Shown: positions 673 to 48,300 of the stretch, in pieces
Layout of the letters: the number at the start of each line of letters is the position of its first letter
How positions within the stretch are numbered: the stretch's first letter is position 1
Assembly (NCBI GenBank): GCA_965240335.1
Contig: CBDEKM010000008.1
Coordinates: 311,072 to 375,071 of the forward strand
Direction of reading: 5' to 3'
DNA: 64,000 nt
Source: a bacterium
GTDB taxonomy: Bacteria > JAAXHH01
Made by a program: the position numbers and the translations under genes
The notes under the pieces: generated by a model
What the model saw: only the letters and a program-made list of their open reading frames with translations
Databases searched by the model: none
What the model was told of the DNA's origin: nothing

Positions 673-3333
673 TCAACTCCTCAACCGCCGCGCGGCCGCG
701 GTCGCCTCGTTCTCCCGCCGCCTGCGCCGGACGAAGATGAAAACGCCGAGGAGGAAGACCGGCACCGGCGGAAGCAGTGCGGCCAGATTCTTGATGGAGT
801 TCTGGATCAGGCGGATCTGGCTTTCCATCATCTCCTTGCTGTCCTGGATCCTGGCTTCCTTATCGGCCTCGATGTTGGTCTTCAGCGTCTCGAACCGCCG
901 GTTCTCGACTTCCTCCAGGTTGCGTACCATGATTCCACGGGTCTGTTCGTCCAGGTCGGTCCGTTGCCGGACCTCGTCCACGCGGGCCGTGAGGCGGCGG
1001 CGGGCCTGGTCCAGGGCCGCCTGCGCTTCCTGCTCGGCATCATCCTCGTCCTTGACCCGTTGCTGCGTGTACGCCAGGGTCTGCCTTTCGACGGTCTCGA
1101 GCGTCCGGTAACGCACCCGCTTGCTGCGCAGGGCGATGAAGGACTCGTCCCCGACCAGCACGTCCATGACGTTCAGGAAGAAGGTGACGTTGTCGAAACT
1201 GAATCCCCCGGCACCCAGTCGGCGGATGTCGAAGAACTGCTGCGAAGCGAAATCCACGTCGGCCACGACGATCAGGTTCACCGCTGCGGTTTCCCCCGTG
1301 ACGTGGGCCGCCATGGTGTAGGCGTTCTGGCTCGCGCGCCGCGGTACGTTGGAAAGGGACAGTTGCCAACCGCCGAAGAAGTTTCGATGAACGATCTGGG
1401 AATAGGCGGTCAGTCCGGACACCTCCCCGCTTTGCACCAGCGGCGAAAAGGTGAAATCGCCGGATCCGCTGGGCTGCAACCGGCCCGGGAAGATGAAGAC
1501 GAGTTCCTGCAGTGACGCGGTGCTGACGGCTTCCTGGTTGAAAGTGTCCGGATTCTCATTGCCCGGTGAGGCGAAGACCACCTCCGGTGGGAGATGGGCC
1601 ATGCCCGGATGGGGATTGTAGCGATCCCATACGATCAACCCGGAATTCCATTCTACGCCGAATCCCCGCAGCATGCCCTGGATGTCGCCTTTCGGTATCG
1701 GGGGCGGTTGCTGGTTTCCCGCGAAGGGATTGGCGCCAGCGCCCGGCTGCTCTGAGGGGGCAAGGGGCAGGTTGAAGGACGGCAGCGGGTCTGTCAGGAT
1801 GAGCGAAGGGTTACCCACCGCGATATAATCCGCAAGCCGGTCCATTTCCGGCTGGGGCAGGGTGTTGGGCAGGGCGACCAGGAGTACGTCCAGGTCATCG
1901 GGGTATTCTTCCTGGGGCTGCACCTGCACCACGTCGTACTGCTTGCGCAGTTCTTCGGTCATGGCCCAGGGCTGACGGCTCTGCATCGTGTTGAAATCAA
2001 ATCCACCGAAGAGCTGCACTTTGGTGGCGAGTATGCCGAGTTTAGCCCGGTCCGCGCGGGCGGCCACCCGCAGGCTGCGCACCAGTTCGTACTCGACCGA
2101 CAGCCCGGTATCCAGAAATTCTATCACCTGTTCCTCCGGACCGCAGGTGACGGCGATCCCGGCGAAGACATTCGTGAATCCCGATCGGGCGCTACGCAGG
2201 TCCGGCAGCTGCCTCGGCGCTATGCCGAACCGCTCCCGGGCCTCCCGGGCCTCGGGAGAGTACATCTCCGTGGCCTGGATCCGAACCTGGACCCGGCTGC
2301 CTCCCACGGCGTCCAGTTCCTTGAGCACGTCGATCAGGCTCGACCGGGTCTGTATGTAGGATTCCGGGACCTCGGGACTCACGAAGGCCTGGATGAACAC
2401 GGGACGCTCCGGGTCCAGTTCCGCCAGCATCTGCACGGTCTCGTTCGAGAGCGAATGCAGCCCTTCGGCGGTCACGTCCAGGCGGACGCCCGTCCGGCCC
2501 AGGATGGCGTTCAACCCGATAATAGCCACGACCAGCGCCGCCGCCCGTACGCCATGATGGATCCCTGTGCCGAAGCCCCCGGCCCGCGCAGGCCAGTGTC
2601 GTCGGCTGATCAGCACCACGTTGAGAAACAGCATCAGGCCCGTGACGGAGACGAAATGAATCAGGCCGGAGAAACTGACGACGCCGCGTGCAAAATCGTC
2701 GAAGGCGTTGAAGAGCCCCAGGGGCGAGAGCAGGTTCCGCAGCCCCTCGCTGATGCCGCCCGTAATGGGACCGACAAGCACGAAAACGCTACAGAAAAGC
2801 GCGCCCAGGATGAAGGCGATGGTCACGTGCGAGGTCAGCAGGGACGCCAGCATGCCGACGGAGACGAGGGCGGCGCCGGCGAGCCAGTAACCCAGGTAAT
2901 TGCCCGCCATGAGACCGAGGTCGGGGCTGCCGAGAAACATGAGGACCAGCACGTGGGTCAGAGACAGCAGCAGCGAGGCCGTGTAGACACCCAGTACTGC
3001 GAGGTACTTGCCCAGGACGATTTCCAGATCGGTCGCCGGAAGTGTTAGTAGCAGTTCATCCGTTCCCTGCCGGGCTTCATCGGCCCACACGCCCATGGTC
3101 AGGGCCGGTATGAAGAAAAGCAGCAGGTAAGGGAATACGGCGTTCAACTGGTCGAGGTTCGCCAGGTTGTTCAGGAAGAACTGGACCTGCCAGAATGCGG
3201 CGGCGGCGCTGAGGAAGATGAACAGGGTGACGAAGACGTATCCCGAGGGATTGCTGAAGGCCAGGCGCATGTCCCTGCGGACGATGGCCGCGATCACCTT
3301 GCCGTTGAGCCGGTTGACGGGACCGAGGTTCAT
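673..3333 (-). CDS. ABC-2 family permease (GldF-like) fused to GldG-like ABC auxiliary component; C-terminal coiled coil plus TM anchor
   Basis: 886 aa. N-terminal ~250 aa has 6 hydrophobic segments typical of ABC-2 permeases. The remainder matches the GldG-type periplasmic domain, ending in a coiled-coil segment and a terminal TM (PVPVFLLGVFIFVRRRRR). Overlaps the ATPase gene by 4 nt. Confidence 0.7.
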   Translation of the reverse strand: MNLGPVNRLNGKVIAAIVRRDMRLAFSNPSGYVFVTLFIFLSAAAAFWQVQFFLNNLANLDQLNAVFPYLLLFFIPALTMGVWADEARQGTDELLLTLPATDLEIVLGKYLAVLGVYTASLLLSLTHVLVLMFLGSPDLGLMAGNYLGYWLAGAALVSVGMLASLLTSHVTIAFILGALFCSVFVLVGPITGGISEGLRNLLSPLGLFNAFDDFARGVVSFSGLIHFVSVTGLMLFLNVVLISRRHWPARAGGFGTGIHHGVRAAALVVAIIGLNAILGRTGVRLDVTAEGLHSLSNETVQMLAELDPERPVFIQAFVSPEVPESYIQTRSSLIDVLKELDAVGGSRVQVRIQATEMYSPEAREARERFGIAPRQLPDLRSARSGFTNVFAGIAVTCGPEEQVIEFLDTGLSVEYELVRSLRVAARADRAKLGILATKVQLFGGFDFNTMQSRQPWAMTEELRKQYDVVQVQPQEEYPDDLDVLLVALPNTLPQPEMDRLADYIAVGNPSLILTDPLPSFNLPLAPSEQPGAGANPFAGNQQPPPIPKGDIQGMLRGFGVEWNSGLIVWDRYNPHPGMAHLPPEVVFASPGNENPDTFNQEAVSTASLQELVFIFPGRLQPSGSGDFTFSPLVQSGEVSGLTAYSQIVHRNFFGGWQLSLSNVPRRASQNAYTMAAHVTGETAAVNLIVVADVDFASQQFFDIRRLGAGGFSFDNVTFFLNVMDVLVGDESFIALRSKRVRYRTLETVERQTLAYTQQRVKDEDDAEQEAQAALDQARRRLTARVDEVRQRTDLDEQTRGIMVRNLEEVENRRFETLKTNIEADKEARIQDSKEMMESQIRLIQNSIKNLAALLPPVPVFLLGVFIFVRRRRRENEATAAARRLRS

Positions 3334-4100
3334 TCGCCTGTCTCCCCGGCGGCTGCCTCCGCGTTCCCCGATTCCCCAACGTCCGCTCCCGTGCGTCCGT
3401 GCCCGGTCAACGCGTAGAACGATTCTTCCAGCGTGCCGTCCCGGCGCAGCACCTCCGGCGTGCCGTCGAAGACCAGCCTGCCTTCGTTGATCAGGAGCAC
3501 GCGGTCGGCAATTACGTCCACTTCATGCAGGATGTGCGTGGAAAGGAGTACGGTCTTGGTCTGCCCGAGCAATCGGATGTCCTGCCGGAAATCCCGTATC
3601 TGGTTGGGATCCAGGCCGGCGGTCGGTTCGTCCATGATGAGTACGTCGGGGTCGTGGAGCAGGGCCTGTGCCAGGCCGACACGCTGCTTGTTGCCCCGGG
3701 ACAGTTTATCGATGGGTTTTTCAAGGGCCTGATCCAGGCTGCACCGGTCGATGACGTAGTCCAGGCGATTCGCCAGCAGGCCGGAATCCAGTCCCCGGAC
3801 CTCACCGAAGAACCGCAGGAGTTCCAGCGGCGTCATGTTCTGGTAAAGCGGACCGTTTTCGGGCAGGTAACCCAGGTGCCGCGACATGGCGAGACGGTCC
3901 CGCCTGACATCCAACCCGGCGATGGCCGCACTTCCCGCGCTTGCGCCCAGGTAGCCACTGAGGATCTTCATCGTCGTGGACTTTCCCGCGCCGTTAGGAC
4001 CCAGGAACGCCACGATCTGGCGGTCGGGTATTTCGAAGGAGATATCTTGCACGGCGACAAAGGAGCCGTAGTACTTGCATAGCCCCTTTGCTTCGATCAT
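3330..4100 (-). CDS. ABC transporter ATP-binding protein (GldA-like)
   Basis: Walker A GPNGAGKST, ABC signature LSRGNKQRV, Walker B LIMDEPTAGLD. Start set to the conserved MIEAKGLCKYYG N-terminus (ATG at 4098-4100) rather than the longer upstream ORF extension. Confidence 0.85.
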   Translation of the reverse strand: MIEAKGLCKYYGSFVAVQDISFEIPDRQIVAFLGPNGAGKSTTMKILSGYLGASAGSAAIAGLDVRRDRLAMSRHLGYLPENGPLYQNMTPLELLRFFGEVRGLDSGLLANRLDYVIDRCSLDQALEKPIDKLSRGNKQRVGLAQALLHDPDVLIMDEPTAGLDPNQIRDFRQDIRLLGQTKTVLLSTHILHEVDVIADRVLLINEGRLVFDGTPEVLRRDGTLEESFYALTGHGRTGADVGESGNAEAAAGETGE

Positions 4101-4262
4101 TACTTTGTCGGACACCCTTTTTACCACTCCTGTTTTGGCATGAAATCCAGATGTCCGCGTCCAATGGGCGCACGTTTGGACTTTCGTTCGTTTTCGCGGG
4201 GTCGAATGATAAACAGGGCGCTGAATCGTGTCAAGTTCAGAATGCACGAAGACGCGAATCTC

Positions 4263-4312
4263 TTGACATACGGCTTGATTAATCATATCATAAATTACTG
4301 ATTAATCAATAA
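4263..4312 (+). promoter_or_regulatory. Sigma70-like promoter (TTGACA-17-TATCAT) overlapped by two copies of the palindrome TGATTAATCA in an array of GATAAT-like hexamers; Fur-box-like operator
   Basis: TTGACA at 4263-4268, 17-nt spacer, TATCAT at 4286-4291. Palindromes at 4275-4285 and 4299-4309 within tGATTAATcATATcATAAATtActGATTAATcAATAAAT, which resembles Fur-box hexamer arrays. Sits upstream of the small peptide / lipoprotein / TonB-receptor operon. Confidence 0.4.
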
Positions 4313-4365
4313 ATAACAGATATATGTCAATGAATCCATGGCGGAACTCCGGTTCAACCTTTCCC

Positions 4366-4641
4366 ATGAAATTCCTCTCGCTGTCCTGCGTGCTCGTCTA
4401 CGCCCTGCTCTCCGCCGGCCCGGCGCTTCACTGCCATGGCCTCGAGGCGAGCACCGGTCATGAAGACCACTGCCAGGGATGCCAGTATACCTTCGCATCC
4501 TCCACGGTTTCCGACAAATCGACCGCGCCGGTTCCGGCCGACGACACATTCGGTACCATAGTCGCCGGTTTCGAACGGTGTTTTTCCCGGTCCCAAACCG
4601 GAATCCTCGGCAGCCGCGCTCCTCCTCCCGAAGCATCCTGA
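4366..4641 (+). CDS. Small secreted Cys/His-rich protein (91 aa), function unknown
   Basis: MKFLSLSCVLVYALLSAGPALHC... has a signal-peptide-like N-terminus. Mature part is His/Cys-rich (HCHG, HEDHCQGCQY). Codon third positions are strongly G/C as in neighbouring genes. An in-frame upstream ATG at 4324 is an alternative start. Confidence 0.4.
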   Translation: MKFLSLSCVLVYALLSAGPALHCHGLEASTGHEDHCQGCQYTFASSTVSDKSTAPVPADDTFGTIVAGFERCFSRSQTGILGSRAPPPEAS

Positions 4642-4868
4642 TAACGCGCTTGCGCGCGCCGATCAAGAAGTATTTTCCCGGTAAACCCGGATCCGCACTC
4701 AAATTTCGGGTTCCCAACGGCCCGGGCCGTACCATTCAGATTTCTCCAAGCCTGGTGATCCCGGCCTGCATATCCTGGCCAACCCAATGCGGTCCATGCA
4801 TCATCGAACAGGTCATTCGACGATGACATGACAACGAACGTCAACAGAGAAGCCAAGGAGCCCAGATC

Positions 4869-5498
4869 ATGTCGAAGCAACGCCTGCACATATTCGCAGT
4901 TTCGCTGTGCTTCACCGCCGCACTGGCCTTCGCCTGCGCCGACGACGAAGGCAGCCCCACAGGGCCCACGGATCCCACCGATCCCACGGATCCCACCGAT
5001 CCCACGGGACCGGGAGAGGAAGAACTCATTACGACCATCGTGATCACCCTGACTCCGACTACCGGGGGAGCGCCAATCATCGCACGGTTCGCTGATCTGG
5101 ATGGCGAGGGAGGCAACCCGCCGGAGGTCGACGAGATCACGGTGTCCAAGAATACCACGTACGACGGTAGTATTGAGGTACTCGACGAATCCGTAACACC
5201 GGCGGAGGACATCACCGAAGAAGTGAAGGAAGAGGCGGAGAATCACCAGTTCTTCTACGAACCCCAGGGCGGCATATCGGACGCGGTCATCACCTACCGG
5301 GACATGGAATCCGACTACGGAACCAACATTGGCGCCGATCATCCCGTCGGGGTGAATTTCCGCATCGAGATTCTTCAGGCCGCCACGGCCGGCAAGTTAA
5401 GGGTAACCCTCAGCCACTACGACGAGCGGCCGAAGGACGGTCAGAATCCGAGCGATGAAACGGATATAGACGTGACGTTCGACGTGATCGTTGAGTAA
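4869..5498 (+). CDS. Lipoprotein with (PTD)5 linker, unknown function, co-operonic with TonB-dependent receptor
   Basis: Signal peptide plus lipobox-like LAFAC|ADD. 9-bp tandem repeat encodes PTDPTDPTDPTDPT. Acidic beta-rich C-terminal domain. Stop overlaps the receptor start. Confidence 0.6.
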   Translation: MSKQRLHIFAVSLCFTAALAFACADDEGSPTGPTDPTDPTDPTDPTGPGEEELITTIVITLTPTTGGAPIIARFADLDGEGGNPPEVDEITVSKNTTYDGSIEVLDESVTPAEDITEEVKEEAENHQFFYEPQGGISDAVITYRDMESDYGTNIGADHPVGVNFRIEILQAATAGKLRVTLSHYDERPKDGQNPSDETDIDVTFDVIVE

Positions 5499-7821
5499 GT
5501 TCACATTGCTGGCGATACTACTGGCATTCGCGGGGCCGGTCCATGGGGCCACGGTTACCGGCAAGGTACTGAACGAGGAAAGCGTTCCACTGCCGTCGGT
5601 GACCGTCCTCCTGTCAGCCCTGGAGATCGGAACATTCACCGGCGATAACGGGCTGTTTACCCTGGAAAACGTACCCCCGGGGAGACACGGGATCGAATTC
5701 CGGTTCGTAGGGTACCGAACGATCACGACCGAAGTCATCGTTTCCGAATTTCGGCCAACCGTGCTCGAAGTAAGAATGGAACCGGAACCCCTCGTCGGCG
5801 AAGAGGTCGTCGTGACCGGTGAACGGAACCTGGCGGGTGAACTCACCGGCTCGAGCCAGTCCGTTCTCGTGCTGCCGCCGTCGGCCCTGGAGGAAAGACG
5901 GGGCCAGACGCTGGGGGAGACCCTGGAATCCTTGCCCGGCGTATCCGCGCTGACCACGGGACCGGCCGTATCGAAACCCGTGCTGCGCGGGGTCCACAGT
6001 GCCCGCGTGCTGGTGCTCAACGCCGGGGTTGCGCAGGAGGGCCAGCAGTGGGGTGGTGACCACGCCCCGGAGATCGATCCCTTTTCACCGGCCAGAATCG
6101 AGGTGCTCAAAGGCGCTGCGGGCGTACAGTACGGCGTTGGCGCCATCGGCGGTGTCATTCGCATCGAACCGCCCGAACTGCCCGAGAACCCCGGAATCGG
6201 CGGCAGGATCAACACGAATATGTTTTCCAATAATCGCCAGGGGGCCGGTTCCGCCCTCGTGCAGGGCGCGTTTCGCCGTCTCCGGGGGCTCAAATGGCGC
6301 GTGCAGGGCAGCCTCCGGCGTGCGGGGGACGCCCGCGCGCCTTCCCACGTCATCCGGAATACCGGGTTCGACGAGCGGAACTATTCCGCCGCCCTGGGCC
6401 TGACGACGGACTGGATGGACACCGAAGCCTATTTCAGCCATTTCGGTACGTGGATCGGTATCTTCAAGGGTTCCCACATCGGCAACACCACGGACCTCGA
6501 ACGAACGATCGCCCGGGGCGACCCGGACATCGTGGGGTCCTTTACCTACGACATCGACAATCCGCGGCAGCGGGTGGATCACGATCTGCTTTCACTCCGA
6601 TCCAGGATAGGATTGAAAGGCACAGGCAACCTGGAATTGCGTTACGGCCAGCAGTACAACCGGAGGGAGGAGTGGGACTCCCACACCCGGGGAGGCGGCA
6701 CGCCGGCCAGGCCCGGGTTCGCCCAGGGTCTGCAGACCCACAGCGGCGATATGATCTACCATCATCCAAATCTGGGACGGTGGTACGGCAAGATCGGCGT
6801 CAGCGGCATGCGCCAACGCAACAGGCGATTCAGCACGGGGTTCCTGATCCCCGATTTCCTGGCCTATAATCTTGGCGTATTCGCCCTGGAATCCTGGACG
6901 AACGGGAAGGTTACGTTGGAAACGGGCGCCAGGTACGATTACCGCTGGATGGAAATCTACCCGAATGAAAGCACACGGGCCTCCGAGCGTGTCGTGGGCC
7001 GAACGCATACATACAGCAACGTGACCGGCGTCGTGGGGCTGATCTACCAGTTGTCGCCGACCCTGGCCGCCGCCGCGAACGTGGGCCGGGCGTGGCGCCC
7101 GCCCGGGGTGAACGAGCTTTACAGCCACGGCGTACACCACGGGACGGCGCAGTTCGAGGTAGGCGATACGGATCTGGAGACCGAGTCGAGCGTGAACACG
7201 GACCTTACCCTGCGGTACCAGGGTGAGCACGGCCGTGGTGAATTAGGGTTTTTCAGGTCGCAGTACGACAACTACATTTCACTGCTGCCGGCGGACGATC
7301 TCGTATTGACAATCCGCGGCGCGTTTCCTAAATTCACCTACATACAAACCAATGCCGTAATACAGGGTGTGGACGGCTACCTCGAGTACGATCTCGCGCG
7401 GTACCTGGACGTATACCTGTCCGCGTCCCTCGTCCGGGGTCGAGACACCTCGAAAGACCGTCCCCTTTACCAGATGCCGTCTACCCGGCTGATTGCCGGG
7501 CTGGATTTCCACCTGCCCACCGCGGGGCGTCTGCTCGAAGCGGGTGTCGGATTCGAAGGCCGCTTCGTTATGCGGCAGAACAGTTTTCCCAGGGACATCG
7601 ACTACGTGGATCCCCCGGGCGGTTACAGCCTCTTCGATGTCCACATGCACGGGGAGTTCGCCGTGGCCGACCAACCGGTGCGGATGCAGTTCGGGGTTCA
7701 CAACCTGTTCAATAACCGGTACCGTGACTACCTGAGCCGGTTCCGGTATTTCATAGACAATCCAGGACGGAATGTCACGTTCAGCCTGTCCGTTCCCTTC
7801 GGGCAGCCGATGGAGGACTAA
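5491..7821 (+). CDS. TonB-dependent outer-membrane receptor with N-terminal carboxypeptidase-regulatory-like domain
   Basis: 776 aa. Signal peptide, CarbopepD_reg-like fold (TGKVLNEE...LPSVTVLL), plug region (EEVVVTGER), 22-strand-barrel-like body, terminal aromatic ...SLSVPF. TTG start overlapping the upstream gene. Confidence 0.85.
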   Translation: MSKFTLLAILLAFAGPVHGATVTGKVLNEESVPLPSVTVLLSALEIGTFTGDNGLFTLENVPPGRHGIEFRFVGYRTITTEVIVSEFRPTVLEVRMEPEPLVGEEVVVTGERNLAGELTGSSQSVLVLPPSALEERRGQTLGETLESLPGVSALTTGPAVSKPVLRGVHSARVLVLNAGVAQEGQQWGGDHAPEIDPFSPARIEVLKGAAGVQYGVGAIGGVIRIEPPELPENPGIGGRINTNMFSNNRQGAGSALVQGAFRRLRGLKWRVQGSLRRAGDARAPSHVIRNTGFDERNYSAALGLTTDWMDTEAYFSHFGTWIGIFKGSHIGNTTDLERTIARGDPDIVGSFTYDIDNPRQRVDHDLLSLRSRIGLKGTGNLELRYGQQYNRREEWDSHTRGGGTPARPGFAQGLQTHSGDMIYHHPNLGRWYGKIGVSGMRQRNRRFSTGFLIPDFLAYNLGVFALESWTNGKVTLETGARYDYRWMEIYPNESTRASERVVGRTHTYSNVTGVVGLIYQLSPTLAAAANVGRAWRPPGVNELYSHGVHHGTAQFEVGDTDLETESSVNTDLTLRYQGEHGRGELGFFRSQYDNYISLLPADDLVLTIRGAFPKFTYIQTNAVIQGVDGYLEYDLARYLDVYLSASLVRGRDTSKDRPLYQMPSTRLIAGLDFHLPTAGRLLEAGVGFEGRFVMRQNSFPRDIDYVDPPGGYSLFDVHMHGEFAVADQPVRMQFGVHNLFNNRYRDYLSRFRYFIDNPGRNVTFSLSVPFGQPMED

Positions 7822-7826
7822 ACATA

Positions 7827-10091
7827 ATGTATAGTTGTCGCGTGATTCTGCGCGTCGTAGCCGCATGCTGTGTCACGGCTTTGCTGGCCGGCATGGCTGG
7901 CGGCACCGCTTCGGCGCAGGATCGGGAACTGGTCCCCCTGCGCATTCTGGAATCGCTGCACATGGACGGGGTGCTGGACGAGGATATTTGGCAGAACGCC
8001 CTGGCGGCCTCCGGTTTCACCCAGCAGCGTCCCGACGAGGGACAGCCGGCGTCCGAGCGGACGGAGGTGCGGGTCCTGTACAACGAACAGACCCTGTACA
8101 TCGGTTTGTGGGCCTACGATTCGGACCCCGCCCAGATCATCGCCACCCAGATGGCCCGGGACGGCGACCTGGCCGACGATGATTACTTCCAGGTCATCCT
8201 GGATACCTACCTGGACCGTCAGAACGGCATTCTCTTCGCCACCAACCCCGACGGCGCCCGCTACGATGCCCAGGTGCGTAACGAAGGCCGGTCCGAGGGC
8301 CGCTTCAATACCAACGTCCTGACGGACTGGAACGGCGTATGGGACGTGTACACCTCCCGGAACGAAGCGGGGTGGTACGCCGAGATGGCCATCCCCTGGA
8401 GCACGCTGCGATTCGAAGCCGGCGATGACGTGGACTTCGGGTTGAACCTGGAGCGCCAGGTCCGCCGCCGCAACGAGCAGTCCTTCTGGGCGCCGGTCAT
8501 CCGGCCCTTCAGCATATCCCAGGTGTCGGTGGCCGGGACCCTGTCGGGCATGAACCTTACGAAACACGCCCACCGCTACCTTCAGATCACGCCCTATTCC
8601 CTGGGCGGCGCCACGTGGACTTTCCAACCCGGCACGACCAAGCGGGACGATGATTTTGACGGCGGGGTGGACGTCAAGTACGGACTGTCCCAGAACCTGT
8701 CCCTCGACCTGACCTATAACACCGATTTCTCCCAGGTTGAAGTGGACGACGCGCAGGTCAACCTCACCCAGTTCAACCTGTTTTTCCCGGAAAAGCGCTC
8801 CTTCTTCCTGGAGAACGCCGGCCTGTTTCGCTTCGGCGTGGCCCGGGAGACGGAATTGTTCTACAGCCGCAACATCGGTCTGGCGCGCGATGGGTCCGGA
8901 ACGCTGAGACAGGTGCCGATTACCGGCGGCGGCCGTATGACGGGCAAGGCCGGGAGAACCAATCTCGGCCTGCTGCTCATGCGCACCGGCGACCAGCAAT
9001 TCGGCGACTTCAAGATCGACAACAACATCTATGCCGTGGCGCGATTAAGCCGGGACGTGGGCGAGAAATCGAATATCGGCCTCATTATGACCAACCAGCG
9101 GATCGGCGGTGGCGATTACAACCAGGCGGGCGGCGCCGATTTAAACCTGGCGATCGGTCCGAAGCTGGCCGTCAGCGGTTTCCTGGCCGGGACCAGGTAC
9201 CAGGAAGGCGAGAACAGCGAATCGGGTTTCGCGGGACGGCTTTGGTCGCGGTGGAACGGTCCGCTGTGGCAGTTCGAGGGGCTCTACATGGGCGTGTCCG
9301 AGTTCTTCAATCCCGGCATGGGTTTCTTCAGCCGACGGAGCCTGGCCCGGAATTTCGGCGGATTTCACGAGGTTTCCGCCCGCGCGTTTTTTACCCCCGA
9401 ACCCGACAACAGTATCGTTCGGAGGTATTTCCCCCACATCGTGCTGGGCGCGACTTTCGGAGACGACGGCACGCAGCTGACCCGAAGGGAACACTACCAT
9501 TTCGAGACTGTTCTTCACGGGGGGTGAACAGGCGGGGATCACCCTGGACCGCGCCTTCCGGCGAATCAGCGAGGACACGCGGCCCATCCTGGGCGTCAAG
9601 CTTCCCGCGGGCAACTACACGGACGCGTCTTCGCGCATGCATTTCACGACGAACCTGAGCAAACCCCTGTCCGCCGACTTTCGAACTCATTCGTGGGCCA
9701 GTACATAAACGGCGACCGGCGCTCGCTGAGTCTCGGGGGCGGATTACGCACCGGTTCGAAGTTCACGATCGGTCCCCGGTACGAGTTGAACGACGTGACG
9801 CTCACCGACGCCGGCCAATATGAAGCGGGAGGTCACCGCCCATCATCTTCGGGGTCAGGACGAGCTATTCCTTCTCGCCGGACCTGTCGCTCCGCGCGCT
9901 GGTGCAGTGGGACACCCAGCAGGACCGGTTCGTTTCGAACTTCCGGTTCAACTATATCATCAACCCCGGGAGCAACCTCTTCGTCGTGTACAACGAGACG
10001 GCGGGACAACGGGGAGATGACGGACACCCTGCTCGGCGATCCGCTGGACCGTACCCTGGTGGTCAAGCTGGCCTACCTGTTCGACCTGTAG
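7827..10091 (+). pseudogene. DUF5916 / CBM9-like outer-membrane protein gene, disrupted by at least 4 frameshifts in its last 600 bp
   Basis: Intact for 566 codons (7827-9527). The protein then continues in frame +1 after a G6 run at 9519-9524 (QAGITLDRAFRRISEDTRPILGVKLPAGNYTDASS...), back in frame 0 (GQYINGDRRSLSLGGGLRTGSKFTIGPRYELNDVTLTDAGQYEAGG), frame +2 (VQWDTQQDRFVSNFRFNYIINPGSNLFVVYNETAGQRGDDG), and frame 0 again (EMTDTLLGDPLDRTLVVKLAYLFDL*). Each segment is clearly protein-like. Confidence 0.55.
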
Positions 10092-10098
10092 GAGTCTC

Positions 10099-10458
10099 AT
10101 GAACGTACTCGGCGGCACACTCATGGGATGTTCGACCGATCCCCTGACCGGGTTCTACCGCGACGGCGCATGCAATACCGGGTCGGGCGACGCCGGTGTG
10201 CACGCGGTCTGTACGGTAATGACCGAAGCGTTCCTCGTCTTTTCCAAAGAAACCGGGAACGATCTCAGCACGCCCGTGCCCGCCTTCGGCTTCGAGGGAC
10301 TCAAACCCGGCGACCGCTGGTGCATCTGCGTAAACCGCTGGAAAGAGGCCTACGACGCGGGCGTGGCCCCACCGGTGGTAATGAGCGCCACCCACCTCAT
10401 GGCACTGGAATTCGTGTCGCTGGACGAACTGAAGGCCTGCGCGATGGACGAGGCGTAG
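10099..10458 (+). CDS. DUF2237 family protein
   Basis: 119 aa with the family's conserved motifs TGFYRDGxCNTG, GxHxVC, GNDLSTP, LKPGDRWCxC. Confidence 0.7.
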   Translation: MNVLGGTLMGCSTDPLTGFYRDGACNTGSGDAGVHAVCTVMTEAFLVFSKETGNDLSTPVPAFGFEGLKPGDRWCICVNRWKEAYDAGVAPPVVMSATHLMALEFVSLDELKACAMDEA

Positions 10459-11089: not shown

Positions 11090-11605
11090 ATGCCATCGAA
11101 GAGCGCCTCATTCCATAAATCCCGCGCCGCCGAGCGCGGACCCGTGGGAGTCGCCGTCGTAACGGTCAGCGATTCCCGCACACCGGAAACGGACGTCAAC
11201 GGCGATTACCTCCGGGCGCGCATCGAAGAAGCGGGCCACCGGGTCGCCGGCTACCGGCTGATCCGGGACGAACCGGACCAGGTTGAAGACGCCCTGGAAA
11301 GCTGCACCGGCGAAGACGTCCAGGTCGTGATTTTCAATGGGGGAACCGGCATCTCGCAGAGAGACCGGACCTTCGACGTGCTGAACCGCAGGCTGGAAAA
11401 GCCCCTGCCCGGGTTCGGCGAGATATTCCGCATGCTCAGCTACGAACAGGTCGGCGCGGCGGCCATGATGTCCCGCGCCACCGCGGGCGTTTACCGAAAT
11501 ACAGTCATTATCTCTACGCCCGGCTCCCCGGCCGCGGTGAAACTCGCATGGGAGAAACTGATCGTGACGGAAATCTCCCACATGGGCTGGGAACTTACCC
11601 GGTAA
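11090..11605 (+). CDS. Molybdenum cofactor biosynthesis protein MogA/MoaB family
   Basis: 171 aa MoCF_biosynth-like: [11 protein letters not shown]...GGTGISQRD...[11 protein letters not shown]. Confidence 0.7.
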
Positions 11606-11676
11606 TCATCCCGGGCCGGGCGGTCCGGGCGGACCGGGAACTTACCCGATCATCAACATTACCCACGGAGGTCTTC

Positions 11677-13137
11677 ATGCTGTCCCCGAATCGAGGCACC
11701 GTACACGGGGTCGCGCACCACGTGATCCTGCGTTACTCCCTGTCCCTCGCCCTGAGCCTTGCGCTGGCATGCTCGGCGGCCATGGCTTTCGATGTCCGCG
11801 CACAAACCGACGACGAGAAAACCGTCGACGCCATTTTCGACGAACGGCTGACCACCGGCGAGATGTACGACCTGCTGGGCGATCTGTGCAAGAACATCGG
11901 ACCGCGCCTGAGTGGCTCGGAAGGCGCCGAACGCGCCGTGGCATGGGCCAAAGAGGTGATGGAAGGGTACGGGTTCGACCGGGTCTACCTCCAGGAAGTC
12001 ATGGTGCCCCACTGGGAACGTGGCGGTAAGGAGCAGGTACGGATAGTCGACGTCGAGGGAGGCATGATCGAATTGCGCGCCCTGGCCATCGGCGGATCGG
12101 TACCTACGGCTCCAGAGGGGATCGCGGCGGAGGTGGTGGTGGTTCACTCCGTCGACGAGGTGAATGATCTGGGTCGCGACGTCATTGAAGGGAAAATCGT
12201 TTTCTATAACCGGCCCTTCGACCAGACGGTGATCGGCACGGGACCCGGTTACGGCGGGGCGGTCGGTCAGCGTTCCGCGGGCCCTTCCCAGGCGGCGAAG
12301 CAGGGCGCCGTGGGCGTGGTGATCCGTTCGGTCGCCTCCAACTTCGACGACGAACCCCACACCGGCGGCCTGCGTTACCTCGACGGCACGGAGCGTATAC
12401 CCGCGGCGGCGCTGGGTTTTCAGTCCGCCGACCGGCTGATCAAGGTACTGGAAGATCAACCCGACGCCAGGCTCTACATGCACCTGTCCTCCAAGTGGCA
12501 TCCCGACGCCCTTTCCCATAACGTGATCGGCGAGATCCGGGGCAGCGAACGGCCGGACGAGATCATCCTGGTGGGCGGCCACCTGGATTCGTGGGACGTG
12601 GCTGAAGGCGCTCATGACGACGGCGCGGGCAGCGTCCATGCCATCGGCGTGCTGCGTACCTTCATGGAACTTGGCATCCGGCCCCGGCACACCATCCGGG
12701 CCGTCTTGTTCATGAACGAGGAAAACGGCCTTCGCGGCGGCATAAAATACGCCGAGGTGGCGAAGGAATCCGGCGAGAAACACCTGATCGCGCTCGAAAG
12801 CGACGCGGGCGGATTCAGCCCGAGGGGATTCGGCGTGAGTGCCGACGACGAAGTCATCGAGCGGTTCCGGTCGTGGCTGCCCCTCTTTCCCCAGAACACG
12901 ATCGCATACATCAACAAGGGTGGGGGCGGCGCAGACATCGGTCCGCTCCGCAGGGAGACGGGTACCCCGACCATCGGGTTCATTCCGGATTCGCAGCGCA
13001 TGTTCGACCTCCACCATGCCCCGACCGATGTTTTCGAGACGGTGAACCGGCGGGAACTGGAACTGGGAGGCGCGTCCATCGCCTCGTTGATCTACCTGAT
13101 CGACAAGTACGGCCTGCAGGACGACAAGGCGCAATAG
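11677..13137 (+). CDS. M28 family zinc peptidase with PA domain, secreted
   Basis: Start chosen at ATG 11677 (GGAGG upstream, signal peptide MLSPNRGTVHGVAHHVILRYSLSLALSLALACSAAMA). M28 motifs HLDSW, DDGAGS, NEENGLRG. Confidence 0.8.
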   Translation: MLSPNRGTVHGVAHHVILRYSLSLALSLALACSAAMAFDVRAQTDDEKTVDAIFDERLTTGEMYDLLGDLCKNIGPRLSGSEGAERAVAWAKEVMEGYGFDRVYLQEVMVPHWERGGKEQVRIVDVEGGMIELRALAIGGSVPTAPEGIAAEVVVVHSVDEVNDLGRDVIEGKIVFYNRPFDQTVIGTGPGYGGAVGQRSAGPSQAAKQGAVGVVIRSVASNFDDEPHTGGLRYLDGTERIPAAALGFQSADRLIKVLEDQPDARLYMHLSSKWHPDALSHNVIGEIRGSERPDEIILVGGHLDSWDVAEGAHDDGAGSVHAIGVLRTFMELGIRPRHTIRAVLFMNEENGLRGGIKYAEVAKESGEKHLIALESDAGGFSPRGFGVSADDEVIERFRSWLPLFPQNTIAYINKGGGGADIGPLRRETGTPTIGFIPDSQRMFDLHHAPTDVFETVNRRELELGGASIASLIYLIDKYGLQDDKAQ

Positions 13138-13146
13138 GAGGGGGCG

Positions 13147-13731
13147 ATGACGACGCTCAGAATCCTCCTCTGCCTGACGTTCATCCCGATCGGCCTGGTC
13201 GGCCCGGTCGGCCCGGTCAGCCCGGTCAGTCCAGTCAGCCTGGGCAGTCCAGTCAGCCTGGTCTGCATGCCATCCCCGGCATCGGCCCACGAGTTCTACG
13301 TCAGCATCACCAGGGTCAAATGGCACGCGGACGAACATCGGCTCGACATAACAGTGCGGATCTTTACGGACGACCTGGAGGAGGCCATCGTGGCGGAAGG
13401 CGGCCCCCGGCTCCGGCTCTGGACCGGCCAGGCCCATGTTGACCGCGACCTGCACGTGGCGGACTACCTGGCCTCCCGGCTGGCATTCCGTATCAACGGA
13501 GCGGAGGGGAAACTTGTCTACGCCGGCATGGAGGACGCGCTTGACGCCACCGCCTGTTTGGTGCAGATTACGGATGTGGACCGCGTGGAAACGATCGAGG
13601 TCGAGAACCGGATCCTGATCGATCTGTACGACACGCAGGCCAACGTGATGCGGTTCGAAATCGGCGGCGAGAAGAAGTACGTCAACCTGAGTAAGGGGAC
13701 CGTCAAGGGGACGGTTCGTTTCGGTTCCTGA
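13147..13731 (+). CDS. Secreted protein of the family usually found between M28 peptidase and HupE/UreJ (DUF6702-like, tentative)
   Basis: 194 aa. Long signal region containing a 9-bp tandem-repeat tract (GPVGPVSPVSPVSLGSPVS). Mature HEFYVSITRVKWH... Synteny M28 - this gene - HupE/UreJ. Confidence 0.45.
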   Translation: MTTLRILLCLTFIPIGLVGPVGPVSPVSPVSLGSPVSLVCMPSPASAHEFYVSITRVKWHADEHRLDITVRIFTDDLEEAIVAEGGPRLRLWTGQAHVDRDLHVADYLASRLAFRINGAEGKLVYAGMEDALDATACLVQITDVDRVETIEVENRILIDLYDTQANVMRFEIGGEKKYVNLSKGTVKGTVRFGS

Positions 13732-13733
13732 AT

Positions 13734-14306
13734 ATGTCCGAATTCCAGGTATATCTGCAAATCGGTTTCGACCATATTTCGGACCTGCGCGCCTACGACC
13801 ACATCGTATTCATCATCGCCCTCTGCGCCGCCTACCCGCTAAAACGGTGGCGTTCGGTACTTTTGCTCGTTACGGCTTTCACGATCGGGCATTCGATCAC
13901 CCTGGCGCTGGCCACGCTCCGCATCGTGCTGGTACCTTCGGACCTGGTCGAGACGCTCATCCCCGTGACGATACTGGCGACGTGCCTGATGAACGTCTTC
14001 AGGCCATCGGAGGGAAGAACCGGACGGAAGACGAGTTACGGACTTGCCCTGTTCTTCGGCCTTATCCACGGCCTGGGATTCTCGAACTACCTGAGGGCGC
14101 TGCTGGGCATGGAAGAATCGATCATCGTGCCGCTCCTGTCCTTCAACATCGGACTGGAACTTGGTCAGTTGATGATCGTGGCGGTCTTCACGAGCGCGGC
14201 CTTCGTGTTCCTTCAGATACTGGGTACGCCGCACCGTCAGTGGAACCTCTTCGTATCGGGTGCGGCCGCAGGAGTTTCGGCCATGTTGCTGCTGGGGGCG
14301 AGCTGA
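13734..14306 (+). CDS. HupE/UreJ family membrane protein (Ni/Co transporter-like)
   Basis: 190 aa, 6 TM. N-terminal HxxxxxH-type motif (GFDHISDLRAYDHIVFIIAL), GHSITL, typical of HupE/UreJ. Confidence 0.75.
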   Translation: MSEFQVYLQIGFDHISDLRAYDHIVFIIALCAAYPLKRWRSVLLLVTAFTIGHSITLALATLRIVLVPSDLVETLIPVTILATCLMNVFRPSEGRTGRKTSYGLALFFGLIHGLGFSNYLRALLGMEESIIVPLLSFNIGLELGQLMIVAVFTSAAFVFLQILGTPHRQWNLFVSGAAAGVSAMLLLGAS

Positions 14307-27460: not shown

Positions 27461-27505
27461 GCATTGAGCCACGATAAGGATTCTACGCGACCAGGACTCC
27501 ACAAT

Positions 27506-44702: not shown

Positions 44703-45326
44703 ATTGAAAGGAGGGAGGAATCTGAAATCACGAAAAGAGCCATATTTGTCTATACATCGGGAAAACGATCAAATAAGAGAAGAATCATAAAAAAGTTTTT
44801 GACTGAAGCATATTTACGGTAATAAATACTTGATTTAACAATGGGGAGCTGGTAAACTATCCCATGATTAATCCCACACTTGACAAAAATACAAAAAAGT
44901 TATTGACTTTGGCGCAGTTACGGGATTATTTACTTGATTTTGTAGCACGGTCCATATATACTAAGTCTTGTTTTCCGAAGAGGTTTCAGTCACGGAAAGC
45001 AAAATTGACACACGGTGAAGTAAGCGATACCCTTGCACCTCTTGGAGAGGTTGCAGGATAACGGGTAACGGTTTTCGTATGTTTGCAGTTGCGGTAATGA
45101 CCTTAAGATCATTCAGGTGTAAGAGCGTTTTACTCCACAACGCGCACGTCATTCTAAGGAGAATCAATATATGTGTGTTAGTCCGGTGCGGCCTGAAGCT
45201 AAACACGGTTCTCATGTTGCATTCTCCCGACGGGAATCCCGGTCTGATCATGCCGGCTTTTCCGCAAAGCGTATAGAAATGTGTGATCATCCATCCTTTC
45301 TTATAAGGTTTAAGGAGAATTTACAT

Positions 45327-48300
45327 ATGCGGTACATTTCCAGGTTCAAGAACTCTATACGTGCTTCGAGCGTTTACAGCCTGGCGTTCATGTTTGTGTT
45401 CGCCTTAGCTGCGAACCTGACGACGTACGAAGAAGCCCACGCACAGCGTTCGATTCAGCTGATTGTGGATGCGCCGGACCCTGCGGAATTGATGGAGACC
45501 GGTACTGCGACTACCGTTACGCTGTCAGCTGAGCATGTTGTAATAGATGAGGATTTAGCACTACCGACCGAAGCGATCACTATTACAGTAAAGTTACCCG
45601 TGCTCGAGGGAATGAATCCGGATTATGCCATCACAGACACTGATGGTACCGATGACGGAATGGTGGAGTTAACGCTCACTGGGGCTAGTTCCAATACGGT
45701 TAACTTCACCATAACCCCCCGTGACGATTCTGTCTTTGAAGCGGATAGGACAATTTCATTAACTGGTGAGGCCTCGGGATATGTCGTGCTTGCCGCCAAA
45801 ATCAAACTGCTGGATGACGATCATCAGCTGGAATTGTCAGTCGAACCATCTACGGTAAATGAGGATAAGGGCGAGCAGACGGTGATCGTGACCGCAAACC
45901 TCACTGAAGACGCGCCGTTAGCTACCACTGTGCCGTTGACGATATCTCCTGCGTCGACGTCGTTTTATACTCTTAGCGCTACCGCGCTGTCGATTCAGAT
46001 ATCGGCAGGTTCGAGTTCAGGTACGGCTAAGTTTAACATCACGCCTGTCGACAACGACACTTACGATGGTAACCAGAAGATCAAGGTTGATCTTAATGAT
46101 GCTCAGAGCAATCTGGCACTTAGAGAAGCGAAAGAGATCGTGCTGGCGGACGACGAAAGCCCACCCGCCTTGGATCTCTCCGTATCTCCTTCCAGTATTA
46201 AAGAGGCCAATGGCGCTCAGACAGTGACGGTGACCGCGAAGTTGACAGATGGCGTGCTGTTGTCGTCATCTACAGTGGTCACAGTCAATATCGCTGCCAA
46301 TGACGATCAGTATACTCTGAGCACCAAAGTACTTGCAATAACGATCAGGGCCAAACGTGATTCGGGGAGTGCTAGGCTTACTATTACTCCTGAGCCGGAT
46401 GGAACTTACGAAAGGCACATGGCCATTGGTCTGACCGGTAGAGCGACCATATTGGATGACGTAAACATCAGCGATACTGCGACGGTAACGTTGTTGGATG
46501 ATGATCAGGAAGTTACACTGTCGGTGTCGCCTGCGACGGTAAAAGGCGCAGCGGCGGAGGTAGTCATCACGGCCTTGTTGGATCGGCCAGCCAGGGATGC
46601 CAGTGGTTTCGACGTACCCATAACCATCGGTGAAGCAAATCCCTCCGCATATTCTTTGTCAGCTGAAACTGATGTCGGGCTATCCGGTAATGGATTGACG
46701 ATCACGGTTCCGACTGGATCCTCGATGCGATCAGTGACGGTGACTGTTACACCGGTTGATGTATATGCCGCCGGTAACGCGCAATACAATCGCGATGTAG
46801 AGATTGGCGTTGATGTCGCTGACGCTGGCCCGCTGGGGAGATCAGCCAAGATCACGCTGAAGGACTCGATCGACCGGCCGAAGCTGGAACTGGCGGTGAC
46901 GCCGGAAACTGTGATGGAAGAGCCGGCGATGGACGACGATGCCAATACTGATGGCGTTCAAACTGAATTAACCATCACGGCTACGCTGGACGGCGGGACT
47001 TTTCAAGGCGATTTTGGTGTAGTTGTAGAAATCTCCGAGGATGATGATTTCTATACCGTGTCTTCTAAAGAAGTAACCTTGACTCCCGCCGGTTCTTCGT
47101 CTGGACCATGGACGGGAACAGTGATGGTCACGCCTGATCCGGACAGCAAGTTCGAGGCGTACCAGACCATCTCCTTCTCGGCCAAAGCGACCGAAGCGAG
47201 TCCACCTGACGGAAGTGACGCGATCGAGTTAACGGCAAGCGATACGGTTCAGTTGCAGGACAACGATCATCACGTGACCTTGGCTGTAGAGCCTTCGTCA
47301 GTGACCGAAGAAGGCGGAGAACAGACGGTGATCGTGACCGCAGAACTGACCGCTCCTGCACCGATAGCGACCACAGTGCCGGTGACCTTGTCGCCCACGA
47401 CCTCATCGTTCTACAGTCTGGACGCTCATGTACTGTCAATCCAGATTGGAGCCGGTGCGAGTTCCGGTACGGCGAAGCTGAACGTCACGCCAGTCGACAA
47501 CAACACCTACAATGGTACACAGAAGATCAAGGTTGACATTGCAGACTCGAGTCCGCTGGTACTTCGCGCTACTAAAGAGATCGCGGTGACCGACGACGAG
47601 AATCTACCGGTGATGTCATTGTCGGTGGATCCGGATGAGATCACCGAGGCCGGTGGCGCGCAGACGGTGAGCGTAACGGCTAAGCTGATGGACGGCGTGA
47701 TACTGTCGACGCCCACGGTGGTGACGGTGAAGGTAGTCGACGATGACGAGCAGTATGCGCTGAGCTCGAAAGAGTTCGCGATCACGATTCCTGCCAACCA
47801 GGCAACCATGTCGGCGAACCTGCTCATTACACCTGAACCCGATGGGACCTACGAATCCCACCTGGGTATCGGTCTGTCGGCCGAAGCGACCATCAAGGAC
47901 GGCGATGATGACGTCAAGCTCAGCGCTGCCACGACGGTAACGCTGCTGGACGATGATCAGGAGGTTACGCTGTCAGTGTCGCCTGCGACGGTGAAGGGCG
48001 AAGCGACAGATGTAGTCATCACGGCCACACTGGACCGGCCAGCACGAGGCGTTAACGGTCTCACGGTTCCCGTAATGATCGCGACGGGTGGTAGCCATAG
48101 CTTGACAGATGAAGATGGAAATGCCATAGCTAATGGCCTCGTGAACATCGTGGTCCCAACGAGTGCTTCCGCACAGTCGATTACGGTTACGGTGACACCT
48201 GCCGGTGATTACGCCACCGGAACCGGCTACAATCGGGACGTGGGAATTGACGTTACGGTCACCAGTGCCAGCAACCTGCTGGGCCGGGAGGCGACGATCA

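Follow-up and report, generated by a model that had tools for sequence, protein, structure and literature searches.

Metal-sensing arrest peptides of the CruR/CutF type represent a recently recognised form of regulation after transcription initiation, and the two examples that have been studied experimentally both come from Proteobacteria. Here, we analyse a stretch of 64 kb of bacterial DNA (contig CBDEKM010000008.1; referred to as the window, whose positions are used as coordinates throughout), in which a small upstream open reading frame (uORF) precedes the genes of a lipoprotein and a TonB-dependent receptor. We consider it likely that this uORF, which encodes 91 amino acids, specifies a cis-acting, metal-sensing arrest peptide with an RAPP motif, which is of the CruR/DUF2946 type, rather than a structural protein.

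The closest described system is CruR (Bp2923; DUF2946/PF11162), which heads the copper-responsive cruR-bfrG-bp2921 operon of Bordetella pertussis (Roy et al. 2022, PMC9426467). CruR carries an export signal and a CxxC motif, which is followed after 45 residues by an RAPP motif located 3 residues before the C-terminus; this gap is conserved within ±1-2 residues in >2000 DUF2946 proteins, and its extension by 5 residues breaks regulation (PMC9426467). The receptor is not expressed properly unless RAPP is present, and copper can repress the operon only by way of CxxC; this repression is brought about by Rho-dependent termination in a 162-nucleotide (nt) spacer, with a C>G bubble serving as the Rho-utilisation site (PMC9426467). 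The peptide itself is poorly structured, and the operon shows no response to iron in B. pertussis (PMC9426467). The second example, CutF, is likewise a DUF2946 protein and is encoded in the cutFOG operon of Rhodobacter capsulatus (PMC9973294; bioRxiv 10.1101/2025.02.05.636593).

RAPP is a structurally characterised arrest motif, and arrest peptides with RAPP or RGPP include ApdA, ApdP and ApcA (PMC7897499, PMC10951233). Bacterial proteomes are depleted of the motif, and an enrichment is seen at the C-termini of small exported uORFs that precede TonB-dependent receptors; Fujiwara et al. (2025) describe an enrichment of signal-bearing RAPP/RGPP uORFs upstream of such receptors across Gram-negative bacteria (PMC12992588). 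ApdA, ApdP and ApcA as well as SecM (RAGP) share with the uORF of the window a small exported product that ends in an R-A/G-P-P type motif and whose gene precedes the one under its control, but they monitor the activity of Sec or YidC and control the machinery of protein localisation, whereas the uORF of the window harbors Cys and His residues of a metal-binding type at a fixed distance from the motif. A leader peptide in which a ligand-controlled stall near its end governs Rho-dependent termination is also found upstream of tnaAB in Escherichia coli, where the spacer has a length of ~220 nt. There, tryptophan induces the stall of TnaC, which takes place at the stop codon, whereas CruR is modelled to stall at RAPP until its ligand relieves the arrest.

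A candidate CruR-type uORF ahead of a receptor operon

The product of the uORF, MKFLSLSCVLVYALLSAGPALHCHG...HEDHCQGCQY, has a length of 91 amino acids. Four homologues were retrieved by a word-indexed search (45-74% identity) and 10 more by an exhaustive profile search (down to 25% identity), resulting in a family alignment of 15 sequences including the one from the window. H32, R84, P86 and P87 are invariant in all 15 members, and at least 90% of them share L15, C36 and C39; several members lack other Cys or His residues, but none lacks RxPP. The C-terminal motif of the family reads [NS]-R-[AS]-P-P and is followed by 2-11 residues to the stop. The gap between CxxC and RxPP comprises 44 residues in the window and 43-44 residues in the other twelve members that retain CxxC. 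Pairwise ratios of nonsynonymous to synonymous substitution rates (dN/dS) are ~0.1-0.15 for residues 1-45 and ~0.4-0.8 for the remainder, which indicates that residues 1-45 are under strong purifying selection. Residues 46-83, in turn, drift in sequence while their length stays fixed.

The N-terminus is hydrophobic, with a mean Kyte-Doolittle value of 2.17 over residues 3-17, which are preceded by Lys2, and 13 of the 15 members have a similar stretch, the other two being truncated gene calls. In the AlphaFold2 model of the peptide, a helix at residues 2-17 is the sole confident segment, and the remainder is predicted to be disordered (predicted local confidence score, pLDDT, of 42-58). The start codon is the conserved ATG at 4366. 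An in-frame ATG further upstream, at 4324, which would give a version of 105 amino acids, was rejected, as it is out of frame in the orthologous locus L001 and absent elsewhere; because it is not conserved, we regard the 91-residue form as the real uORF. At the other end, nine uORFs (window, L001, L002, L005, L006 and L010-L013) all finish with CC-TGA, the stop always being UGA and the preceding codon either TCC (Ser) or CCC (Pro). Since CC-TGA is kept at the nucleotide level regardless of the amino acid, the termination context may matter.

The order of the genes for uORF, lipoprotein, receptor and DUF5916 protein is kept in L001-L013, and the four genes stay linked even where the upstream neighbours differ (L006-L009). 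The sequence-only reading of this stretch had proposed a His/Cys-rich first gene of 91 codons with an export signal, followed by a lipoprotein and a receptor with a CarboxypepD_reg-type domain, and had suggested looking for the same order in related genomes. This part of it is borne out: the small gene is conserved, under purifying selection and hydrophobic at its N-terminus according to hydropathy and helix prediction, the domains, the lipobox and the PTD repeat are found downstream of it, and the order of the three genes recurs in L001-L013. It did not cover the C-terminal RAPP, the C-rich spacer of 227 nt and the DUF5916 and DUF2237 genes.

In the orthologous loci, spacers of 193-395 nt separate the uORF from the lipoprotein gene. 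C exceeds G by 11.6% over positions 4381-4830, a value reached by 0.3% of all 450-nt segments of the sequence, and orthologous uORFs and spacers from eight loci are mostly richer in C than in G as well, with about equal amounts of both in the spacer of L005. A search of Rfam with positions 4100-5000 gave no match at E ≤ 1, i.e. no known riboswitch or leader RNA, and in a spacer alignment of nine loci the divergence was too high for a covariation test. A hairpin resembling an intrinsic terminator at 4563-4580 was set aside; it is formed by just 5 pairs within the uORF itself, and shuffled sequences contain more sites of this kind.

At the sequence level, the uORF shows all hallmarks of the class to which CruR belongs, with the Pfam profile as the single formal exception. 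As in B. pertussis, the uORF is the first gene of an operon with a TonB-dependent receptor and encodes an export signal, which is predicted here; the gap between CxxC and RAPP is 44 instead of 45 residues, RAPP is located 4 instead of 3 residues before the stop, a spacer of 227 instead of 162 nt follows, a C>G bubble is present as a candidate Rho-utilisation region, and the poor structure of CruR has its counterpart in the predicted disorder of the window peptide. The differences concern the length of the peptide (91 versus 145 amino acids), the additional His and Cys residues that are conserved in it (HCHG, HxDH), the sub-threshold relation to DUF2946, the host, which is close to Gemmatimonadota and Latescibacterota and does not belong to the Proteobacteria, and the genes downstream, of which the first one encodes a lipoprotein here, and which include DUF5916 and DUF2237 genes instead of the PepSY_TM gene of B. 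pertussis. CutF is comparable in being a small Sec-exported uORF product with a Cys metal motif and a C-terminal Pro-rich stalling motif, which acts in cis and whose mature form is undetectable. It differs in that its motif is CxxxC, that copper induces its stalling rather than relieving it, and that, upstream of a detoxifying multicopper oxidase, it melts a hairpin by which the Shine-Dalgarno sequence is hidden, whereas a hairpin of this kind is unsupported in the window and the genes downstream are uptake genes.

By analogy to CruR, the operon could be controlled as follows. Transcription would start at the TTGACA-17-TATCAT promoter, and the ribosome translating the uORF would stall on its own nascent peptide at Arg-Ala-Pro-Pro. 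At this point about 45 residues would lie between the peptidyl-transferase centre and the CxxC/His cluster, so that the cluster would have just left the exit tunnel. When metal is scarce, the stall would persist and the ribosome would shield the C-rich and G-poor RNA of uORF and spacer, or the polymerase, from Rho, and transcription would proceed into the lipoprotein, receptor, DUF5916 and DUF2237 genes. Metal, when present, would bind to the nascent Cys/His motif and relieve the stall; translation would then terminate, Rho would load and end transcription in the 227-nt spacer, and the uptake operon would be off. Such a CruR-like logic, with a stall under scarcity, fits an uptake operon.

Several observations weigh against this reading. 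The window peptide has no match in Pfam at E ≤ 1, DUF2946 included, and NCBIfam gave no match either. On the supporting side, PF11162 is matched at E ≤ 10 by 6 of the 15 family members and by the uORF of L013, all of them below threshold, with best scores of 21.8 and 20.1 bits at a cut-off of 23.7; the four matches that were inspected are colinear, running from the CxxC region through the end of the profile. Since the window peptide stays below the Pfam criterion, it is to be regarded as a divergent relative or an analogue, and not as a DUF2946 member by Pfam. Judged from the sequences, the uORF is a divergent CruR-like one, and its homology to DUF2946 is probable, albeit not proven. Against a CruR-type control, the C>G bias is small in the spacers of L002 and L005, and two palindromes at the promoter (see below) hint at an extra transcriptional layer, which is not explained by a CruR-type model.

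Table 1 Features of the uORF, its promoter and the adjoining genes in the window.
Feature	Position	Strand	Remarks
gldA-like ATP-binding cassette (ABC) ATPase gene	3330-4109	-	part of a gldA/gldF/gldG-like ABC transporter; boundary ~4109
Divergent promoter-like TTGACA-17-TATCAT of the gldA-like gene	4206-4234	-	conserved block in L001, L002, L005, L010-L013
Operon promoter, TTGACA (4263-4268), 17 nt, TATCAT (4286-4291)	4263-4291	+	11/12 match
Palindrome 1, TGATTAATCA	4276-4285	.	in promoter spacer beside -10; operator-like
Palindrome 2, TGATTAATCA	4299-4308	.	~+1 to +11; operator-like
C>G bubble over uORF and spacer, candidate Rho-utilisation region	4337-4860	+	base composition
CruR-like regulatory uORF (probable), 91 amino acids	4366-4641	+	homologues, selection, conserved gene order
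Hydrophobic export signal or membrane anchor (predicted), residues 2-17	4369-4416	+	hydropathy
Cys/His motif H22-C-H-G...H32-E-D-H-C36-Q-G-C39, candidate sensor	4429-4482	+	CxxC codons 4471-4482
RAPP motif R84-A85-P86-P87, putative arrest site	4615-4626	+	44 residues after CxxC, 4 before UGA stop 4639-4641
Untranslated spacer, uORF to lipoprotein gene, 227 nt	4642-4868	+	
Shine-Dalgarno sequence AAGGAG of the lipoprotein gene	4855-4860	+	
Lipoprotein gene, 209 amino acids	4869-5498	+	lipobox Cys23, PTD repeat
TonB-dependent receptor gene, 776 amino acids	5491-7821	+	TTG start; 8 nt overlap with lipoprotein stop
DUF5916/CBM9-like outer-membrane barrel gene	7827-10091	+	interrupted in the window copy
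DUF2237 gene	10099-10458	+	E = 4.5e-52; 7 nt past the DUF5916 stop

Alternative modes of control

The first alternative retains the arrest peptide and lets it act on translation, as described for SecM, MifM, VemP and CutF. The stall would melt RNA that hides the Shine-Dalgarno sequence of the lipoprotein gene, maybe in response to Sec export instead of a metal in the cytoplasm. CutF, itself a member of DUF2946, works in this way and needs its signal peptide, and in the minimum-free-energy (MFE) fold of positions 4590-4885 the GCUCCU within the RAPP codons indeed pairs with the AAGGAGC of the Shine-Dalgarno region, a pairing which is also possible in L001. However, this fold is no more stable than those of shuffled sequences (z = 0.32), and the pairing is not conserved in L002 and L010-L013. 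When the footprint of a stalled ribosome was forced to be unpaired, the predicted accessibility of the Shine-Dalgarno sequence rose by 0.12 at most, and by no more than 0.06 in 8 of 9 loci. A fold sequestering the Shine-Dalgarno sequence was therefore rejected as the main mechanism, due to its z-score and the barely changed accessibility. As the length of the spacers (193-395 nt) and their C>G bias also suit a Rho model better, we consider control at the level of translation to be unlikely.

A second alternative places the main control at the promoter, where Fur or another metal-dependent dimeric repressor would bind to the two TGATTAATCA palindromes in the promoter spacer and at the expected transcription start near 4298. 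Both the promoter and the palindromes overlapping it, which the sequence-only reading had described, are present, the promoter with 11 of 12 matching positions and the palindromes as exact copies that are 23 bp apart, in the usual position of a repressor, and without any further exact copy in the 64 kb. When this AT-rich stretch of 71 nt was shuffled 20,000 times, a repeated perfect 10-bp palindrome turned up 10 times, which makes the duplication unlikely to be a product of chance. The surrounding island (4250-4350) has a G+C content of 33%, whereas that of the window is ~60%, and a second layer of control would be compatible with a CruR-type uORF.

The evidence that this is a Fur box, and with it the classic Fur-repression architecture of the sequence-only reading, did not hold up in the region 4255-4325. 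For the 19-mer Fur consensus of E. coli (GATAATGATAATCATTATC), the top score was 11/19, which was attained by 63% of shuffles and found at 143 other positions of the window, and the best match to the 7-1-7 consensus was 10/14, which 17% of shuffles equalled. Consensus scans for Zur, PerR and Mur gave background levels, worse than Fur, and of the array of GATAAT hexamers that had been described no hexamer (GATAAT or ATTATC) was found at 5/6 or better. No gene of the Fur family was detected among the window genes scanned, the window having been scanned in part, and the CruR operon of B. pertussis is unresponsive to iron.

Comparison of eight distinct orthologous promoters (L001, L002, L005, L006 and L010-L013) points in the same direction. 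Seven of them (the exception being L006) retain TTGACA as the -35 element and, at a distance of 17 nt, a -10 element rich in A/T, but palindrome 1 occurs in none, and palindrome 2 solely in L001, so that L002, L005, L006 and L010-L013 are devoid of both; just the ACTGA at the 5' edge of palindrome 2 is more widely retained. The search for further TGATTAATCA copies as a sign of a regulon gave one site with a single mismatch in the window (TGATTAATCC at 44865), which is within chance expectation. This site is located ~300 nt upstream of an open reading frame of 4316 amino acids and is probably due to chance. Altogether, the palindromes may represent an operator for some regulator, other than a recognisable Fur box, and are, by the comparison of promoters, lineage-specific and outside the conserved design of the locus; a repressor as the main control is thus quite improbable.

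Finally, that the small protein is a working exported metal binder (a metallochaperone, a metallophore- or hemophore-like partner or a membrane-anchored sensor) with an incidental RAPP can be argued from its predicted N-terminal export signal, its conserved Cys/His cluster and its being always encoded together with the receptor, but is very unlikely, given that no Cys or His is conserved as strictly as RxPP, save for H32, which is equally invariant, that a spacer of 193-395 nt precedes the next gene, that the characterised relatives CruR and CutF work in cis and are either degraded quickly or escape detection, and that the segment between the motifs (residues 46-83) is conserved in length and not in sequence, with predicted disorder and no predicted fold past the N-terminal signal helix. 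For these last two reasons, a metallophore or hemophore role, which the sequence-only reading had considered next to a regulatory one, is unlikely, and it is the regulatory role that stands.

The uptake cassette, its substrate and its surroundings

The lipoprotein carries a lipobox (LCFTAALAFAC, with Cys23) that fits the PROSITE-type pattern, followed by acidic residues, a (PTD)4 linker and a predicted Ig-like beta-sandwich, for which the AlphaFold2 model is confident (pLDDT 85). Comparison of this model to solved structures gave no significant or informative match. The family comprises 786 hits, many of which are labelled 'type 1 periplasmic binding fold superfamily protein'. Cys23 is invariant in 47 sequences, and the list of invariant residues reads C23, E52, D76, D78, Y98, E118, E122, H126, D145, H183, E197 and D199. 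The acidic residues behind the lipobox Cys resemble the signal for surface export in Bacteroidota. Because of these residues and the invariant His, Asp and Glu, the lipoprotein is probably located on the cell surface and passes a ligand to the receptor. In the homologues P0039, P0059, P0064 and P0074 from some metagenome-assembled genomes, a His/Asp-rich linker (e.g. HEEDDHDDDHDHG) replaces (PTD)4, and its composition hints at metal capture.

The receptor, which belongs to the metal-ion/haem receptor group, consists of a CarboxypepD_reg domain, a plug (PF07715, E = 1e-17) and a barrel (PF00593, E = 6e-35). Its scores in NCBIfam were 177 bits for TonB-hemin, 118 for ZnuD and 78.8 for the copper receptor model TIGR01778 (OprC type), all of them below the cut-offs, which for TIGR01778 is 472. 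The closest solved structures are ZnuD, the zinc receptor of Neisseria (E = 3e-21), followed by OprC, the copper receptor of Pseudomonas (E = 1e-9), both of which bind free metal ions. The alignment to ZnuD shows that the plug keeps its Asp-His (GGDHAPE) and that the HGxH motif of a loop (SHGVHHG) is retained as well; both correspond to positions that ligate zinc in ZnuD, and haem receptors bind their ligand through comparable His residues. Differences to ZnuD and OprC are the low overall similarity, the extra N-terminal CarboxypepD_reg domain and the dedicated lipoprotein partner.

From this we conclude that the substrate of the operon is likely to be a metal ion. It is the analogy to CruR alone that suggests copper as the sensed metal, with zinc or haem as further candidates. 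Three points count against settling on copper: judged by the model scores, the receptor appears nearer to haem receptors and ZnuD than to the copper receptor model, some homologues of the lipoprotein carry His/Asp-rich linkers, and in two loci from Bacteroidota the cassette is followed by a gene for a ChaN-like haem-binding protein. The neighbouring genes in Bacteroidota are mixed (bestrophin, ChaN-like, DUF2961 and cytochrome P460-like) and not decisive on the metal.

Downstream of the receptor gene, the arrangement of a DUF5916 gene followed by a DUF2237 gene is also present in L001. As it is shared with this locus, the operon probably reaches past position 7821, where the sequence-only reading had let it end, and the DUF2237 gene is probably its last one. 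The orthologues of the DUF5916 gene are intact and encode 749 amino acids. Compared to the one of L001, the DUF5916 gene of the window contains five insertions of 1, 2, 1, 1 and 1 nt near 9506, 9679-9680, 9819, 9843 and 9997, i.e. in its last ~600 nt. The first in-frame stop is located at 9525-9527, the frame changes several times, and the original frame is regained by the end of the gene. In this region (9440-10091) the nucleotide identity to L001 is 94%, and the lipoprotein and receptor genes are intact. The window copy is either a recent pseudogene or affected by a local cluster of assembly errors. Literature searches for the database name of the lipoprotein and for DUF5916 found nothing.

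On the other side of the cassette, the divergent promoter and the ABC transporter keep their position in L001-L005 and L010-L013, and not in L006-L009. A cluster of Peptidase_M28, DUF6702 and HupE/UreJ_2 genes is located on the + strand at 11548-14306, 1-4 kb downstream of the operon; HupE/UreJ proteins form a family of putative metal transporters of the Ni/Co/Zn type. Two giant open reading frames are found further along the window, one at 27464-33526 (2020 amino acids, leucine-rich repeats and Big_2 domains) and one at 45171-58121 (4316 amino acids, repetitive, with a signal-like N-terminal segment).

CxxC-RxPP spacing across phyla

In order to compare loci beyond the family, 80 loci with relatives of the lipoprotein were taken from species-representative genomes, and their upstream DNA was scanned for open reading frames ending in RxPP-type motifs. 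In 14 of them, the lipoprotein gene is preceded by a same-strand uORF with CxxC and, ~40-46 residues further on, R-A/G-P-P (in one case K-S-P-P) near the stop; the uORFs of L018 and L028 end with RAPP or RGPP and lack CxxC. The uORF-bearing loci belong to Latescibacterota, Gemmatimonadota, Saprospiraceae, Flavobacteriales, Chitinophagaceae, Rhodothermales and others. Of the 25 relatives that retain CxxC, 24 have 43-44 residues between this motif and R[AGS]PP, and L068 has 40; among them are RGPP uORFs of Bacteroidota, which were detected independently ahead of the same lipoprotein family.

The uORFs with RGPP from Bacteroidota and Rhodothermales (L017, L028, L030, L038, L042, L050, L061, L068 and L089) are rich in His. 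Those of Bacteroidota are unrelated in sequence to the uORF of the window and carry CDLC, CELC or CIVC ahead of RGPP, and among the eight uORFs of Bacteroidota and Rhodothermales with CxxC the gap is 44 residues in six, 43 in L089 and 40 in L068. Pfam does not recognise the RGPP uORFs of these two groups, apart from a weak, sub-threshold DUF2946 match of L068. Since the spacing is kept across unrelated sequences, it is better explained by a mechanical constraint, which the ribosomal exit tunnel would impose through its length, than by a folded domain. About 64 of the 80 sampled cassettes do not have such a uORF and must be under another mode of regulation.

It is conceivable, if rather doubtful, that the subfamily with HCHG...HxDHCxGC and the RGPP uORFs of Bacteroidota sense zinc or haem-iron, in the lineage of the window together with a transcriptional layer at TGATTAATCA. 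If this is true, they would represent the first ribosome-arrest peptides that respond to zinc or haem.

The mechanism of CruR (2022) and the link of such uORFs to TonB-dependent receptors (2025) are known already. As exported RAPP/RGPP uORFs ahead of these receptors have been published (PMC9426467, PMC12992588), the view of the sequence-only reading that such a component is not described for this receptor class has to be abandoned. What is new are the spacing of 44 residues across phyla, the peptides that are invisible to Pfam and the prospect that something different from copper is sensed; uORFs of this type have no earlier description in these phyla or in this gene cassette. The spacing of CxxC-~44-RxPP is thereby extended to a lineage resembling Gemmatimonadota and Latescibacterota as well as to Bacteroidota and Rhodothermales, and to peptides that are not seen by the DUF2946 model of Pfam. 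It also provides a simple sequence rule to annotate uORFs of this type, which are missed by gene callers and were missed in the initial list of open reading frames. In the lineage of the window and its relatives, the uORF precedes an uncharacterised and very widespread uptake cassette, which consists of a lipoprotein and a ZnuD/haem-like receptor; it thus offers a regulatory handle on the function of this cassette and a test case for the copper specificity of the mechanism.

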